Positions 3,272-64,000 of a stretch of DNA of 64,000 nucleotides are shown in pieces. The notes beneath the pieces were generated by a model. The model did no database searches. It had not been told where the DNA came from and saw only the letters and a program-made list of their open reading frames with translations. This DNA is from Candidatus Latescibacterota bacterium (GTDB taxonomy: Bacteria; Latescibacterota; UBA2968), in assembly GCA_965204745.1 (NCBI GenBank), contig OZ242010.1, positions 5,088,001-5,152,000 on the forward strand, written 5' to 3'. A program made the position numbers and the translations under genes. Positions within the stretch are counted from its first letter, which is position 1; each line of letters opens with the position of its first letter.

Positions 3272-3316
3272 GTGGGGACTGACAACTGACAACTGACAAC
3301 TGACAACTGACAACTG
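3272..3316 (-). repeat. Heptamer tandem array (AGTTGTC)x5 ending in AGTCCCCAC
   Basis: GACAACT x5 at 3281-3315. Confidence 0.95.
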
Positions 3317-5542: not shown

Positions 5543-5905
5543 GGTTCTGTTGACATTTACGAGCAATGTAACTGGAATTGAGCGGTTTATCGGGAAAATC
5601 AAGCCCTATCGGGACCTACCCCCCTGGCCCCCCTTCCTACAAGGAAGGGGGGAATGGCGAGCGGTTTTGCGAGGGGATAGGATGAGGGATTTTTAATCGC
5701 TTTATGCCCTCGGTCAATGCCATCAGAGCAACCCTTGATAGAAGCCATCAAGGGAGCTTTACTCCCCTTTCCTCGTAGGAAAGGGGCCGGGGGATAGGTC
5801 CCCTCTCGCAATGCCATCAAAGAAACTTTACTCCCCTTTCCTCGTAGGCACAGGCGTAGCCTACAATGAGCGAAGCGAATAACGGGGCCGGGGGATAGGT
5901 CCCCT
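5543..5905. mobile_element. One-ended inverted copy of the MITE at 16908-17432
   Basis: Begins TA-GGTTCTGTTGACATTT; body aligns in reverse with about 17020-17432. Confidence 0.8.
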
Positions 5906-16907: not shown

Positions 16908-17432
16908 GGTTGTGTTGACATTTCATTTTTTGACGTTATGCACAGAGTAGCAAATGTGTTGCTTGCTCATTTAAGGCGTTTGGTCCTTTGATGGCTTATA
17001 TCTCTGATTGCTCTGATGGCGTTGCGCGAGGGGACCTATCCCCCGGCCCCTTTCCTACGAGGAAAGGGGAGTAAAGCTCCTTTGATGGCTTCCAGCTCTG
17101 GTTGCTCTGATGGCATTGACCGAGGGCATAAAGCGATTAAAAATCCCTCTCACCATCCCCTCGTAAAACCTATCCGCGTTCCCCCCTTCTTCGCAGGAAG
17201 GGGGGTTAGGGGGGTAGGTCCCCCTCGCAAAACCGCTCACAGTTCCCCCTTCCTCACAGGCACAGGCGTAGCCTACAACGAAGCGCAGCGAGTAACGGGG
17301 GTTAGGGGGTTAGGTCCCGATAAGGAGCGACTATTCTAGGTTCTCAAACCGAGAGCATATTCTGCGATAGGGCTTGATTTTTTCGATAAGCCGCCCCATT
17401 CAGTTGCATGGCTCGCAAATGTCAACACAACC
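16908..17432. mobile_element. MITE, 525 bp, 16-bp perfect TIRs, TA on both flanks
   Basis: GGTTGTGTTGACATTT (16908-16923) / AAATGTCAACACAACC (17417-17432); TA at 16906-07 and 17433-34; no credible ORF. Confidence 0.88.
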
Positions 17433-30938: not shown

Positions 30939-30950
30939 AAGGTGAGATTC

Positions 30951-31037
30951 AGTTGTCAGTTGTCAGTGGTCAGTGGTCAGTCCCCGCCCTTCCAGCCCAA
31001 GGCCATGTATGTGCTGATCGCTCGTTTTGCTGACCGC
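30951..31037 (+). repeat. Heptamer array plus left copy of a ~70-bp direct repeat
   Basis: (AGTTGTC)2(AGTGGTC)2AGTCCCCGCCCTTCCAGCCCAAGG...; matches 34515-34587 with 4 mismatches. Confidence 0.9.
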
Positions 31038-34479: not shown

Positions 34480-34587
34480 AGTGGTCAGTGGTCAGTGGTC
34501 AGTGGTCAGTGGTCAGTGGTCAGTGGTCAGTCCCCACCCTTCCACCCCAAGGCAATGTATGTGCTGATCGCTCGTTTTGCTGATCGC
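34480..34587 (+). repeat. (AGTGGTC)x7 array plus right copy of the ~70-bp direct repeat
   Basis: 7 perfect units at 34480-34528, then AGTCCCCACCCTTCCACCCCAAGG... Confidence 0.95.
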
Positions 34588-35607: not shown

Positions 35608-36816
35608 ATGAATTACGCCATTGTTCTCGCCGCTGGATCCGGGACGCGGATGGGGACAGACATCCCAAAGCAATTTCTCGACCTTGCCGGGCGACCCGTA
35701 TTGGCGTGGACCCTGACCGCATTTGAACGCGCTGACCGCATTGATCGCGTCATACTCGTCGTGGGCCGCGAGCGTGTCGATGCCTGTCGAGAACAATTTG
35801 GCGGGCCGCGATTTCCCAAAGTCGTCGCTGTGGTGCCCGGCGGTGCAAAACGGCAGGATTCCGTGGCGTGCGGGTTGCGGGCCATTCCGGCAACCGCGGG
35901 TGTGGTTGCTGTTCACGATGGCGCACGGGCTTATGTGCGGCCCGAGGATATCAACGCCGCAGTCGTCGCAGCGGCTGACCGCGGCGCCGCGGTCTTGGGC
36001 ACGGCCGTCACGGACACGATCAAGCGCGTGCGCGGGGATCGAGTCGCAGAAACTTTGGATAGATCGACCTTACGCACGGTGCAGACGCCCCAAGCCTTTC
36101 GCCGCGCGATAATCTGCCGCGCCCATCGATCAGCGCGTGAATCGGGCTATGTGGGCACAGACGATGCGGCCTTAGTTGAGCGACTGGGCGAGGAGGTCGT
36201 CATCGTACCCGGACGACGAGACAACATCAAAATCACATCGCCCGGAGACCTCGACTTGGGAGTGCATATCTTGGAACAACGAGGCGACATAACACCCGCA
36301 TTGCGAATCGGCCAGGGCTATGACGCGCATCAACTCGGGGCCGGCCGGCCCCTGATCTTGGGCGGCGTGCATATCCCGCACGAGAAAGGGTTGCTCGGGC
36401 ACTCGGACGCCGATGTGCTCATCCACGTCGTCATAGACGCTGTGCTCGGCGCGCTGGGCGCAGGCGATATCGGACAGGTCTTTCCCGACACAGACCCCGC
36501 GTACAAAGACATTTCGAGTCTCATCCTGCTCGCACGGGTGGGCGACCTCCTCAAAAAATCGCAGGCGCGGCTGATCAACGTAGATGCCACCGTCATCGCG
36601 CAACGCCCAAAACTGGCCCCGCACATTTCACGCATGCGCGAAACCATGGCGCGGGCATTGGACATCTCGATCCAGCGCATCTCAGTCAAAGCGACCACCA
36701 CCGAACACATGGGCTTCATCGGCCGCGAAGAAGGTATGGCAGCGCAGGCAGTGGCTCTGGTGAAAATCAGTAGTCAGTGGTCAGTAGTCAGTAGTCAGTC
36801 CCCGCACCGCCCCTGA
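35608..36816 (+). CDS. ispDF: Bifunctional IspD/IspF
   Basis: LAAGSGTRM...PKQF, VHDGAR, QTPQAF, TDDA; RIGQGYDAH, GHSDADV, KATTTE..GF.GREEG. Confidence 0.96.
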   Translation: MNYAIVLAAGSGTRMGTDIPKQFLDLAGRPVLAWTLTAFERADRIDRVILVVGRERVDACREQFGGPRFPKVVAVVPGGAKRQDSVACGLRAIPATAGVVAVHDGARAYVRPEDINAAVVAAADRGAAVLGTAVTDTIKRVRGDRVAETLDRSTLRTVQTPQAFRRAIICRAHRSARESGYVGTDDAALVERLGEEVVIVPGRRDNIKITSPGDLDLGVHILEQRGDITPALRIGQGYDAHQLGAGRPLILGGVHIPHEKGLLGHSDADVLIHVVIDAVLGALGAGDIGQVFPDTDPAYKDISSLILLARVGDLLKKSQARLINVDATVIAQRPKLAPHISRMRETMARALDISIQRISVKATTTEHMGFIGREEGMAAQAVALVKISSQWSVVSSQSPHRP

Positions 36817-36866
36817 AACCAGTAGTCAGTAGTCAGTGGTCAGTGGGCAGTAGTCAGTCCCCGCAA
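36769..36866 (+). repeat. Two AGTRGTC heptamer arrays, each ending in AGTCCCCGCA
   Basis: 4 units at 36769-36796 and 5 units at 36821-36855. Confidence 0.92.
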
Positions 36867-41937: not shown

Positions 41938-42678
41938 TCAAGGCGTCGCGCCTGATGATAAAACCAACTTGATCCCAACCCCCAAAATAGCCAACAAAAG
42001 AGAGATGATGATAGGCCCGAAAACGACTTTCAACAACTTCAATTCAGACTTCATCTCTGCCATTTCTTGCTTCATCTCCGCCTTCATTTCCGCCATCTCA
42101 ACTTTCACTTCTGCCATTTCTTGCTTCACTTCTGCCATTTCTTGCTTCACCTCTGCCACTTCTTGCTTCACCTCTGCCACTTCTCGTTTTAACCCTGTGA
42201 CCTCTTGTTGCAATTTTGCGACCTTTTGATTCAATTCTGCGATTTCTCGTTTCATCTCGGCTCTCAATTCTGCGATTTCTTGCTTCATCTCGGCTCTCAA
42301 TTCTGCGATTTCTTGCTTCATCTCAGAGCGCAACACAGCCATATCTCCCCTCAATTCTGCGATTTCTTGTTTGATCTCGGAGCGCAACTCGGCGATTTCT
42401 TGTTTGATCTCGGAGCGCAACTCTGCGATTTCTTGCTTCATCTCGGAGCGCAACTCTGCGATTTCTTGCTTCATCTCGGAGCGCAACTCGGCCACCTCAA
42501 CTTTCACCGCTGCGACCTCTGTCTGCACTTCGGCTCGCAACTCGACCATGTCTTGCTCAGTCGCCAAGTCCTCCAAATCATCCTTGTAGGGAATGACCGA
42601 AGCCGCGGCCGCGGCGATATCTTCATCCACGCCCGCCGCGCGAAATGCCCGATAGACTTCTGCCGTCATCGTACTCAT
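41938..42678 (-). CDS. Coiled-coil membrane-anchored protein, DUF1640/CCDC90-like
   Basis: Head (AFRAAGV.E..A.AAA), neck LATEQDM, 33-bp and 21-bp tandem repeats, C-terminal TM. Confidence 0.85.
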   Translation of the reverse strand: MSTMTAEVYRAFRAAGVDEDIAAAAASVIPYKDDLEDLATEQDMVELRAEVQTEVAAVKVEVAELRSEMKQEIAELRSEMKQEIAELRSEIKQEIAELRSEIKQEIAELRGDMAVLRSEMKQEIAELRAEMKQEIAELRAEMKREIAELNQKVAKLQQEVTGLKREVAEVKQEVAEVKQEMAEVKQEMAEVKVEMAEMKAEMKQEMAEMKSELKLLKVVFGPIIISLLLAILGVGIKLVLSSGATP

Positions 42679-62081: not shown

Positions 62082-62591
62082 ATGCCTTATGCAGACCACA
62101 TTGAGCAGGCCAAAGACCCCGTCACCTGTGCGGTGCTCACCATCAGCGATACGCGCACCAAAGCCGATGACAAAAGCGGTCAGATCATCCGCGAATCGGT
62201 CGAAGCCGCAGGTCACAACATCGCGTTTTATCGCGTGGTAAAAGACGATGCCGCGCAGATTCGCACCCTGATCGAACAAATCGCCGTAGCGGGCGAATGC
62301 CACGTCATTCTCACCAATGGGGGCACGGGCATTGCCGCGCGCGACACCACTTATGAAGCCGTCACGAGCCTGCTCGAAAAACGCCTCGACGGATTTGGCG
62401 AAGTCTTTCGCTTTCTCTCATGGGAAGACATCGGCTCGGGGGCCATGCTCTCGCGCGCTGTTGCAGGCGTGTACAAAGACACGATGATTTTCTGCATGCC
62501 CGGCTCATCCGGCGCGGTGCGACTGGCAATGGAAAAACTCATCGTTCCCGAACTCTCACACCTCGTCTGGGAAATCTGGCGGCAAAAGTGA
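62082..62591 (+). CDS. moaB: Molybdenum cofactor biosynthesis protein B (MogA/MoaB)
   Basis: LTISDTR...DDKSG, TNGGTG...RD.TYEA, GFGE.FR..S, MLSRA.AG, PGS. Confidence 0.93.
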   Translation: MPYADHIEQAKDPVTCAVLTISDTRTKADDKSGQIIRESVEAAGHNIAFYRVVKDDAAQIRTLIEQIAVAGECHVILTNGGTGIAARDTTYEAVTSLLEKRLDGFGEVFRFLSWEDIGSGAMLSRAVAGVYKDTMIFCMPGSSGAVRLAMEKLIVPELSHLVWEIWRQK

Positions 62592-62715
62592 GATGGGATT
62601 TTAGCCACGAGCGGGGTACAACTGGCGACAGCCAGTTCAAAGGCACAAAAGGCACAAAAGGGGTACAACTGGCGATAGCCAGTTCAAAGGCACAATCGGT
62701 GAGACGCAAGACGGG
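62589..62715. repeat. Tandem hairpin cassettes plus GNRAGAN heptamers flanking the IS110 right end
   Basis: Two GGGGTACAACTGGCGAYAGCCAGTTCAAAGGCAC units; GTGAGAC GCAAGAC GGG then core AG. Confidence 0.85.
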
Positions 62716-62733
62716 AGATACTCTCTTAAAAGG

Positions 62734-63741
62734 TCAAGGGGTTTTCGGGGTGATTCGATAGAATTTTTCGCCCTCAAAATCTTGGTCATGGCGCAACATG
62801 CCCCAGATCGAATGGAGCAACTTTCGCATCACCGCAACGATAGCCTGCAAAGGTTTCTTGCCGCGGGCGATGAGTTGGTCATAGAAGGCTTTGACATGGC
62901 CTTCGTGTCTGATGGCCACCCAGGCAGGCATATAGAGGGCATGGCGGAGGTACTTATTCCCGGTTTTCGAGATGCGTCTTTGTGGATTGGCGGTTCCGGA
63001 TTGTTTGGGTTTGGGATCCAGGCCTGCATGTGCGACCCACTGGGGCGGTTGCATCTCCTCTGGCAAAAGGGTCAACTCGGCCAAGAGCCGCAAGGCACTC
63101 GTTTGCGCGATGCCAGGCGTCGAGCAGAGGCGTTGGTAGGCACGCTTGAGGGGCTCATCGTGCAAAACGAGATCGAGGGCTTGGCTTTCCAAGTATGCAA
63201 TCCGGCGTTTGAAGTGTCGAATATTCACCTGAATATCGCGTGCGATGAGACGTGTGCTGCGGATGTGGTAGCTCTGCGCGTGGTTGCGGCTCTGTTCGCG
63301 GATGATCTCCTGCTTGAGTTGGTCAATGCGTCTGGTGAGGGCTTGCAGTTGAAGCCGTTGCTCGCTCGGCGCTTGCCAAGGCACAAAAGGCATGCGCTCG
63401 GCATAGTCGAGGATCAACAACGCATCCTTCGCATCCGTCTTCGCCCGTTGCATGCAGGCTTGGGCGTACTTGCTCATCGCTTTGGGATTGACGACCATGA
63501 CCTTTGTGTGGCGATGCCGATGCAAGGCCAAGGCCACCCCCAAACTGTAAAGCCCGGTCGCTTCGAGGCACACAGAGACCATGTGCCCGCCCTTCGTGAG
63601 CCACTTCAGCAACCGCTTATGCGCTTGGGGATCATTGGCAAAGGTCGCTTGCATGACAGCTTGTCCGGGTCTGGACAGGGCAACGGACAACGTGCGGGCA
63701 CTGACATCAATGCCGGCAAAAGCGGGGTGAGATTTCGACAT
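62734..63741 (-). CDS. IS110 family recombinase/transposase
   Basis: GIDVS, CLEATG.Y, KTDAKDA (DEDD), PGI, AGL.P...QSG (catalytic Ser), G.K.LR..LY, A.MRKL; RBS AGGAGG. Confidence 0.97.
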   Translation of the reverse strand: MSKSHPAFAGIDVSARTLSVALSRPGQAVMQATFANDPQAHKRLLKWLTKGGHMVSVCLEATGLYSLGVALALHRHRHTKVMVVNPKAMSKYAQACMQRAKTDAKDALLILDYAERMPFVPWQAPSEQRLQLQALTRRIDQLKQEIIREQSRNHAQSYHIRSTRLIARDIQVNIRHFKRRIAYLESQALDLVLHDEPLKRAYQRLCSTPGIAQTSALRLLAELTLLPEEMQPPQWVAHAGLDPKPKQSGTANPQRRISKTGNKYLRHALYMPAWVAIRHEGHVKAFYDQLIARGKKPLQAIVAVMRKLLHSIWGMLRHDQDFEGEKFYRITPKTP

Positions 63742-63784
63742 GGGGGCCTCCTGTGATGAGGGGGTTGTAAGGGATCTGGTGCGC

Positions 63785-63992
63785 GCTCGGGGTCCCGACC
63801 ATTGACGCCAAGTCTACCGGTCTTGTATATGCAGCCTCAAGGGGCTTAGATACTCTTCGGCATAGACCCGGCGGTCGGGGGGCCTATCTTACCTACAAGG
63901 TCATCGCCTTCAAGAGGGGCCGGCCTTCCCCGAGCCGGGCATCAAGATGGCTTATCTCGATACGAGGGCGCAACTCCTAATTAACCCTTACT
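63785..63992 (-). ncRNA. Predicted IS110 bridge RNA
   Basis: Nested stems enclosing two internal loops; AGAGUAUCU + AUACAAG (donor guides) and CCGGCCCCU + GUAGGUAAG (target guides); ends approximate. Confidence 0.8.
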
Positions 63993-64000
63993 TCCAAGAT

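Follow-up and report, generated by a model that had tools for sequence, protein, structure and literature searches.

Bridge recombinases are under development as programmable genome-writing tools, and their natural specificity rules come mostly from IS621. In the published descriptions of this IS110 element (PMC11208160; PMC11208158), the RNA is encoded in the left end and has a target loop and a donor loop, the CT core is included in each of four guides, a handshake AU (A81/U82) is present, a promoter is split over the joined ends, and the natural target is a host repeat in which a wobble or mismatch is tolerated (target position 4). The element analysed here shares these features apart from the promoter, for which it has a candidate by sequence match, and its recombinase aligns with that of IS621 over the full length, including the DEDD and Ser catalytic residues (E 5.8e-36). 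Several features distinguish it from IS621 as described there: (i) its target is a unit junction in a 7-nt tandem array rather than a REP palindrome, (ii) its right guide pairs 2+5 bases, whereas IS621 has a 4-base right guide, and its left guide pairs 5+2, (iii) the CU that reads the core is shifted by one base within the loop, (iv) an extra outer stem closes both stem-loops and a further 5' hairpin is present, and (v) protein identity is low.

Among solved structures, the best match to the recombinase is that of ISCro4 (PDB 9t56; full length, E 7.6e-40), a likeness in protein sequence. The REP-targeting IS110 elements ISPpu9 and ISPpu10 of Pseudomonas putida (PMC12288879; 10.64898/2026.03.19.712850) have all their copies in one class of host intergenic repeat, a confinement that resembles that of the present element to one class of host repeat; the targets reported for them are palindromic REPs, whereas here only relics use palindromes. 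Among the papers listed for IS110 with heptanucleotide, microsatellite, tandem repeat or STRR, none was relevant, and those listed for Latescibacteria, sponge and insertion sequence contained nothing on this element. The term 'tandem repeat' is absent from the main text of Durrant et al. 2024, the Supplementary Data 2 of which (guide/target motifs) may include the present family. The kind of element is already known; its target, tandem heptamer arrays, is unusual, and its natural series of guide variants is informative.

The IS110 element and its copies

The window, a 64,000-nt stretch, corresponds to positions 5088001-5152000 of contig C1 of genome G000, which is a single contig of 5.48 Mb; the host is apparently a sponge-associated Latescibacterota. 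An IS110 element lies on the minus strand at 62716-64000, and the region analysed is its left end. We consider it very probable that this is an active-looking, IS621-type IS110 element with a bridge RNA aimed at heptamer array junctions. The sequence-only reading had proposed an IS621-type element with a bispecific bridge RNA and a CT core, which the protein, the RNA loops and the borders of all copies support. It had also proposed one of the genome's own, lineage-specific repeats as the target; this holds, with heptamer arrays as the repeat in place of the palindrome that had been named.

A BLAST search with the element and 400 nt past the window edge identified 52 full-length copies in the genome, falling into identity classes of 37 copies at 98.5% or above, 10 at 93.8-96.1% and 5 at about 88%. 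The window copy is 1,286 bp long and the others are 1,288-1,295 bp. According to the sequence past the window edge, aligned over the 52 copies, the left end reads CT|TGTATCTTGG..., with element nucleotide 1 (TGTAT...) at 64003, 3 nt outside the window, and the left core CT at 64005-64004, also outside; the window holds the start of the left end at 63996-64000 (minus strand). The right end, ...AGAGAGTAT|CT, occupies 62716-62737 on the minus strand, its last base being 62718 and its core CT 62717-62716. CT borders both ends in 52/52 copies.

The recombinase gene (62734-63741, minus strand) encodes 335 amino acids with RuvC-like DEDD and Tnp domains, both Pfam matches (PF01548, 1.2e-24; PF02371, 4.8e-20) being past the curated cut-offs. 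Residues D12, E60, D103, D106 and S248-G249 align with D11, E60, D102, D105 and S241-G242 of IS621, the catalytic residues named by Hiraizumi et al. 2024 (PMC11208158). The reading frame is intact in 51 of the 52 copies, all 51 of which retain the catalytic residues, and in 34/52 the protein is the same as that of the window copy.

Some unusual arrangements of the element were also observed. Two full copies with 96% and 99% identity to the window copy form a tandem pair at G000:C1:1121591-1124187 (minus strand), where the spacer consists only of CT-TACCT-CT. A mini-element of about 195 bp at G000:C1:2972661-2972860 (plus strand) lacks the recombinase gene: its left end, from nt 1 to about 187, is joined straight to AGTAT-CT, and both guide loops are kept up to the right donor guide. 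The fusion point is the DNA encoding this right donor guide, itself an inverted copy of the core and left end. Contigs of four public runs break at repeats and none spans the element; in these four contig-only runs, the joints fall in flanking repeats, with short sides of 21-46 nt, and neither a circle junction nor an empty site of use was seen. Elsewhere in the window, at 42070-42555, lies an unrelated complex tandem repeat built on 21-, 33- and 66-nt periods (TRF scores reaching 394).

Structure of the bridge RNA

The bridge RNA core extends on the minus strand from the 5' arm to the 3' arm of an outer stem (63785-63935), as determined from a consensus of 14 homologues and from single-sequence folds. 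It encloses a target-binding and a donor-binding stem-loop with two internal loops, which is the architecture of IS621. Every string and stem that had been quoted from the sequence was found in its place on the minus strand. The stem arms, identified by literal match, are GCTCGGGG/CCCCGAGC (63935-28/63792-85), CCCGACC/GGTCGGG (63879-73/63800-794), GTCTA/TAGAC (63867-63/63816-12) and AGCC/GGCT (63846-43/63836-33). The 14-sequence alignment places the outer stem at 63934-28 with 63791-85 and adds two target-loop stems that were missing from the earlier description, GGCC (63925-22 with 63884-81) and AAGG with CCUU (63910-07 with 63900-897), all on the minus strand.

The alignment comprises 14 left-end sequences: the window copy, a typical copy of the same genome, two copies each from the congeneric genomes A (G082) and B (G091), seven more distant lineages of the phylum, and one Gemmatimonadota contig. 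Its consensus has 5 helices with 31 pairs, 93.3% of the cells being paired, and compensatory changes are found at 15 of the 31 pairs. None of 500 shuffles reaches any of five measures, and pairing falls to 24-50% when the partners are slid by 1-3 columns. The fold proposed from the sequence is thus borne out beyond chance. The single-sequence fold is modestly better than shuffles (z -2.6 to -2.8). The stem CCCGACC/GGTCGGG is absent from the alifold consensus and covaries by eye, with CCCACC/GGTGGG in the lineage G097 and CCCGCC/GGCGGG in G152. An Rfam scan of 62500-64000 gave only chance-level matches (E 0.9-4.6) and no named family.

In the window copy alone among the 52, the 5-nt stretch GACGC that separates the 3' arms of two stems is missing, at 63792-63794. 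Contigs of the four public runs contain these 5 nt, which are also absent from all homologues of other genomes in the alignment. The window copy may represent the ancestral state or a deletion that restored it.

Donor guides, handshake bases and a candidate junction promoter

The donor loop carries a left guide, AGAGUAU-CU (AGAGTATCT; 63848-63856, minus strand), that repeats the final 7 nt of the right end together with the core, AGAGTATCT at 63856-48 being identical to 62724-16. Its right guide, AUACAAG (63822-63828, minus strand), is the reverse complement of CT-TGTAT, in which the core is followed by the 5 nt that open the left end. The donor AGAGTAT-CT-TGTAT had been predicted before the left end was seen, and the left-end start had been named beforehand as the check on it; the sequence past 64000 does read CT-TGTAT, and the left end is CT|TGTAT in 52/52 copies. 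In lineage G097, the right end reads ...GAAAAC-CT and the donor guide is altered in step.

Handshake guides adjoin both right guides. In the target loop, AU (63886-63887, minus strand) pairs donor positions 7 and 6 (T, A); G097 has GU together with a donor AC, a compensatory change. In the donor loop, AC (63820-63821, minus strand) pairs target position 7 (T) by its first base. When compared over 10 lineages, with one locus dropped, this first base pairs target position 7 in 9/10, and A, G, C and U are all used. The role assigned to these bases is the one described for IS621 by Hiraizumi et al. 2024 (PMC11208158). The donor-loop A of this genome pairs T7 of its own target as well, a pairing that work on IS621 suggests to be unfavourable.

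A -35-like TTGACC in the right end (62737-62732, minus strand) overlaps the stop codon of the recombinase gene, and a -10-like TATCTT was found by sequence match at element nt 3-8 of the left end on the same strand. Over the joined right end, core and left end, the distance between the -35-like (TTGA..) and -10-like hexamers is 17-18 nt in 10/10 lineages. The conserved hexamers fit a putative junction promoter of the circular form, of the type described over joined ends by Durrant et al. 2024 (PMC11208160). In the integrated copy, a generic scan for promoters and terminators detected no terminator and nothing sigma-70-like in the left end; its only promoter candidate was weak and inside the ORF. 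Promotion from the flanking array was also considered and rejected, as only 4/52 copies have TTGCCT as the hexamer 18 nt ahead of the -10-like box.

Target guides and the flanks that they match

The left target guide, GGCCCCU-CU (63913-63921, minus strand), has an informative part, CCCCU-CU (63919-63913), which reads in the sense of the left flank's top strand. The right target guide, GUAGGUAAG (63888-63896, minus strand), is the reverse complement of CT-TACCTAC, and the two guides together specify CCCCT-CT-TACCT. The left flank of the copies reads ...TCTCCCCT-CT, with CCT-CT in 52/52 copies and the two preceding bases being C in 43/52 and 45/52. On the right, the core CT is followed by TACCT in 25/52 copies, TGCCT in 17/52, TACTT in 5/52, CACCT in 2/52, CCCGT in 2/52 including the window copy, and TGCCC in 1/52. 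Within the main guide class of 45 copies, the left flank is CCCCT-CT in 41, and 41 have either CT-TACCT (24) or CT-TGCCT (17, an rU.dG wobble) on the right.

Ten distinct left-end sequences in this genome supply natural guide variants that form four guide classes, each beside flanks that match. The left guide GGCGCCU (CGCCU) adjoins CGCCT in three copies and CACCT in one (an rG.dT wobble), GGUGCCU (UGCCU) adjoins TACCT, and GGUCCCU (UCCCU) adjoins TCCCT. The right guide GUAAGUAAG accompanies CT-TACTT in 4/6 copies, and GUAGGUGAG accompanies CT-CACCT. There are exceptions: the left flank is TACCT in 4/45 main-class copies, the right flank is CCCGT in two, and copy 602782 is better served by the guides of the GUAGGUGAG copy than by its own. 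Since guide variants coexist and some copies are found at sites fitting the guide of another copy, the RNAs may act in trans from a shared pool.

The register of the left guide is fixed by its substitutions at positions 3 and 4, whose counterparts in the flank are positions -5 and -4. The first two bases of this guide (GG) never pair the flank (C/T, T), so that 5+2 of the 9 bases are used, and its core-reading CU is closer to the 5' stem, by one base, than that of genome B and of the seven more distant lineages. The strings from which the sequence-only reading derived its target, CCGGCCCCT at 63923-15 and GTAGGTAAG at 63896-88, are in place. Of that predicted target, CCGGCCC-CT-TACCTAC, the right half is correct (guide at 63896-88), whereas the left half is 2 nt out of register: the guide is GGCCCCU-CU rather than CCGGCCC-CU, the leading CC of which is part of the invariant GGCC stem.

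The same reading had cautioned that the right flank of the window copy, CT-CCCGT, does not match the right guide. The misfit is real and confined to 2/52 copies. This flank, CCCG TCTTGCG TCTCACC (62698-62715, minus strand), is a heptamer array into which the window copy is inserted in phase. The mini-element described above has a right-guide variant, GUACGGGAG, that predicts CT-CCCGTAC; thus, the CT-CCCGT flank can be explained by an RNA supplied in trans or by a guide that was homogenised later. An alternative is insertion driven by a half match, as reported in the abstract of 10.64898/2026.08.31.748434.

Heptamer arrays as insertion sites

The flanks of the element are tandem 7-nt units, TCTYNCC, and the genome holds 641 arrays of at least three such units. 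Removal of the element and one CT restores the array phase, and at least one in-phase unit is present on each side in 46/52 copies. Exactly at CCCCT-CT-T[A/G]CCT in (TCTYNCC)n arrays are 37/52 copies; the insertion junction is that between a TCTCCCC unit and a following TCTT[A/G]CC unit, which accounts for only 68 of the 3,227 adjacent unit pairs that are free (2.1%). Perfect sites (TACCT) are mostly occupied (20 occupied and 5 free, that is, 20/25 taken), and sites with an rU.dG wobble (TGCCT) are mostly free (17 occupied and 65 free, that is, 17/82 taken; Fisher p = 1.2e-7). The cost of the wobble can thus be read directly from occupancy.

A microsatellite-like tandem array here serves as a landing pad, with a short effective target (5+2+5) read through a shifted left-guide register. 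The family provides a natural series, in which one scaffold carries at least six target-loop variants in one genome, each with its insertion record. Confinement of 52 copies to arrays also illustrates how a host can carry a large insertion-sequence load. More speculatively, arrays might grow or shrink with the help of guided recombination between adjoining units.

Dispersed short tandemly repeated heptamers with 7-nt units, called STRR, are a feature of heterocystous cyanobacteria; these belong to a different phylum and have a different unit sequence from the arrays described here, and we know of no link between cyanobacterial STRR and IS110. Other heptamer tandem families, ACTGACA, ACTGACC and ACTACTG, are common throughout the genome, with arrays of such families in the window at 3278-3316, 30949-30981, 34480-34531 and 36767-36858. 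They often lie just upstream of TCTYNCC arrays, with a spacer such as TTGAGGAACAGCGCGGTGGCCT, and some heptamer arrays face one another over GAAGGCCACC.

By analogy with IS621, insertion might proceed as follows. The bridge RNA would be transcribed from a promoter rebuilt over the joined ends of the circle. Its donor loop (AGAGUAU-CU, AUACAAG) would read the joined ends of the excised element, AGAGTAT-CT-TGTAT, and its target loop (GGCCCCU-CU, GUAGGUAAG) would read CCCCT-CT-TACCT at a junction of TCTCCCC with TCTTACC or TCTTGCC. A tetramer of the DEDD/Ser recombinase would hold donor and target via the RNA, cut beside CT and swap strands with the aid of the handshake bases. The ends, the two-sided CT, the RNA structure, the guide-flank covariation, the catalytic residues and the choice of sites are observed directly in the present genomes.

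The family could instead consist of fixed relics that no longer move and whose RNA is not made, an explanation that we regard as unlikely. It would account for the 5 perfect and 65 wobble sites that are still free and for the private 5-nt deletion of the window copy in the RNA region; against it, 34 proteins are identical, 37 copies have at least 98.5% identity, 51 of 52 ORFs are intact, guides are intact in 55 target-loop motifs, and both folds of the window copy retain all stems despite the deletion.

Palindromic repeats are used by relics

The sequence-only reading held that the guides, taken as CCGGCCC-CU and GUAGGUAAG, are programmed against the palindromic repeat CCCCTTTCCTACGAGGAAAGGGG. 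Its starting observation is real: CCGGCCCCTTTCCTAC, a 15/16 match, is present at 17043-17058 and, inverted, at 5775-5790, inside CCCCTTTCCTACGAGGAAAGGGG, and CCGGCCCCTTNCCTAC occurs in 124 copies. However, of the 104 ends of full copies, not one comes within 60 nt of any of the 124 CCGGCCCCTTNCCTAC sites, and no scanned solo end was found within 60-80 nt of them. Guide substitutions fit the flanks only in the register shifted by 2, and the match draws on the stem CC of GGCC. AGGCCG in the 15/16 match is identical in all 14 aligned rows, and GUAG is common to 7/14 rows with differing targets; hence, part of the match rests on scaffold rather than guide bases. In a shifted register, the palindromic site pairs 17/18 bases and is never used, so the count of complementary bases alone does not predict use.

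Use of palindromes was found in three relics. The first is a degenerate remnant of a related copy (3' part, 81-88% identity) at 575-1029 on the minus strand of the window; its right end, ...AAGAGAGTAT-CT at about 589-578, abuts TCCTCGCAGGCACAGG, which forms one arm of a palindromic repeat. The second is a truncated copy located at 1433018, with GGCCCCC-CU in its loop, GUCAGGAAG as its guide and ..CCATTCCCC-CT as its left flank; the third is a solo left end, at 2089466, that shares this left flank. Together the three fit a target CCCC-CT-TCCT in the palindrome family CCCCCTTCCT-NNN-AGGAAGGGG (479 matches, both strands counted), which is related to, yet distinct from, the palindrome proposed earlier. 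REP-type insertion in palindromic extragenic repeats was thus found for these three relics and for none of the full copies.

The proposal of a palindromic target was therefore right in kind for the relics and wrong for the current copies. Although the relics sit in palindromic repeats and 4/7 sister copies in genome A share a right-flank motif, the relics use another palindrome family and another guide (GGCCCCC-CU with GUCAGGAAG), and we regard the proposal as highly improbable for the present element.

A REP-like palindrome, CCCCTTTCCT-NNN-AGGAAAGGGG, occurs in the window at 5764-5790 and 17043-17069 and at about 240 sites in the genome, at times with a regular spacing of about 94 nt (e.g., G000:43941-44286). 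Genome B has about 28 such sites, and the same pattern found none in genome A.

Guides and targets in related genomes

At E 1e-40 or better, the recombinase has relatives in 12 of 168 genomes of the phylum and, within the genus, only in G000 and genomes A and B. In genome B, the guides CUCGCCU-CU and GUAGGGAG accompany flanks (C/T)(G/A)CCT-CT and CT-CCC, which are heptamer arrays too, at another junction than that used in G000. In genome A, the guides GAUCC(U/C)C-CU and GUAGAAAAG accompany flanks ..CC(T/C)C-CT and CT-TTTCT that are not arrays; the right-flank motif TTTCTYGNNGGGARG is common to only 4/7 copies, and since one IUPAC pattern for the genome-A palindrome found 0 free sites in that genome, we do not claim a large target family there. 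In each of seven other lineages, the guides are unrelated to these and fit the flanks found there, such as AAAUAGU-CU beside AAATAGT-CT.

A comparison of 87 elements, which represent 17 guide classes from 10 lineages, shows guides pairing with flanks at 795 of 870 non-core positions, 753 of them strictly. The left-guide register was set for each lineage with the flanks already in view; it ends 2 nt before AAGG in G000 and genome A and 1 nt before AAGG elsewhere. The cognate sum is 156.1/170, against 99.1 +/- 6.7 for shuffled class labels, and none of 20,000 shuffles reaches it, figures that overstate significance because neither the copies of one genome nor related genomes are independent of each other. 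The expectation of the sequence-only reading that guides covary with flanks in homologues is confirmed by this comparison.

There remains a very small chance that the shared flanks, given that the 641 heptamer arrays are many and alike and that each of the five 88%-identity copies shares about 50-100 nt of similar flank on each side, arose by duplication or by homologous recombination between arrays, the guide match being a by-product of the founding insertion; but flanks are unrelated past the arrays or short repeats, the insertion point is one specific junction that forms 2.1% of free array junctions, guide variants occupy the junctions that match them, and the same logic is seen in nine other lineages with unrelated targets.

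Matches to the array pattern (TCTYRCC)x4 are abundant only in G000 (423) and genome B (182); the remaining 29 genomes of the family have 0-2, with 0 in genome A. G000 and genome B are also the two genomes with array-matching guides. A tree of the first ~870 nt, with hand-picked rows, has the topology (B, (A, (relic, (88% group, other copies from G000)))), with support of 96/94 for the clade of A and G000 and 84/90 for the G000 copies minus the relic. In this tree, the palindrome-aimed relic branches first within the G000 clade, and the array-less sister clade has other targets. At least two retargeting events are needed, in a direction that parsimony leaves undecided.

Within this lineage, the guides have been retargeted: relics read a palindrome, current copies read heptamers, and minor variants read other unit junctions. 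The lineages of G000 and genome B both read heptamer junctions, each with its own guides and register, and this difference suggests that the junctions were captured independently. It is possible, and we propose it tentatively, that the lineage records repeated natural reprogramming of bridge RNAs onto whichever repeat the host offers.

A natural core mismatch between two target guides was observed in genome G041 (L063, L073, L078). The left target guide ends there in AU rather than CU, and two of the three copies have AT at the left junction and keep CT at the right.
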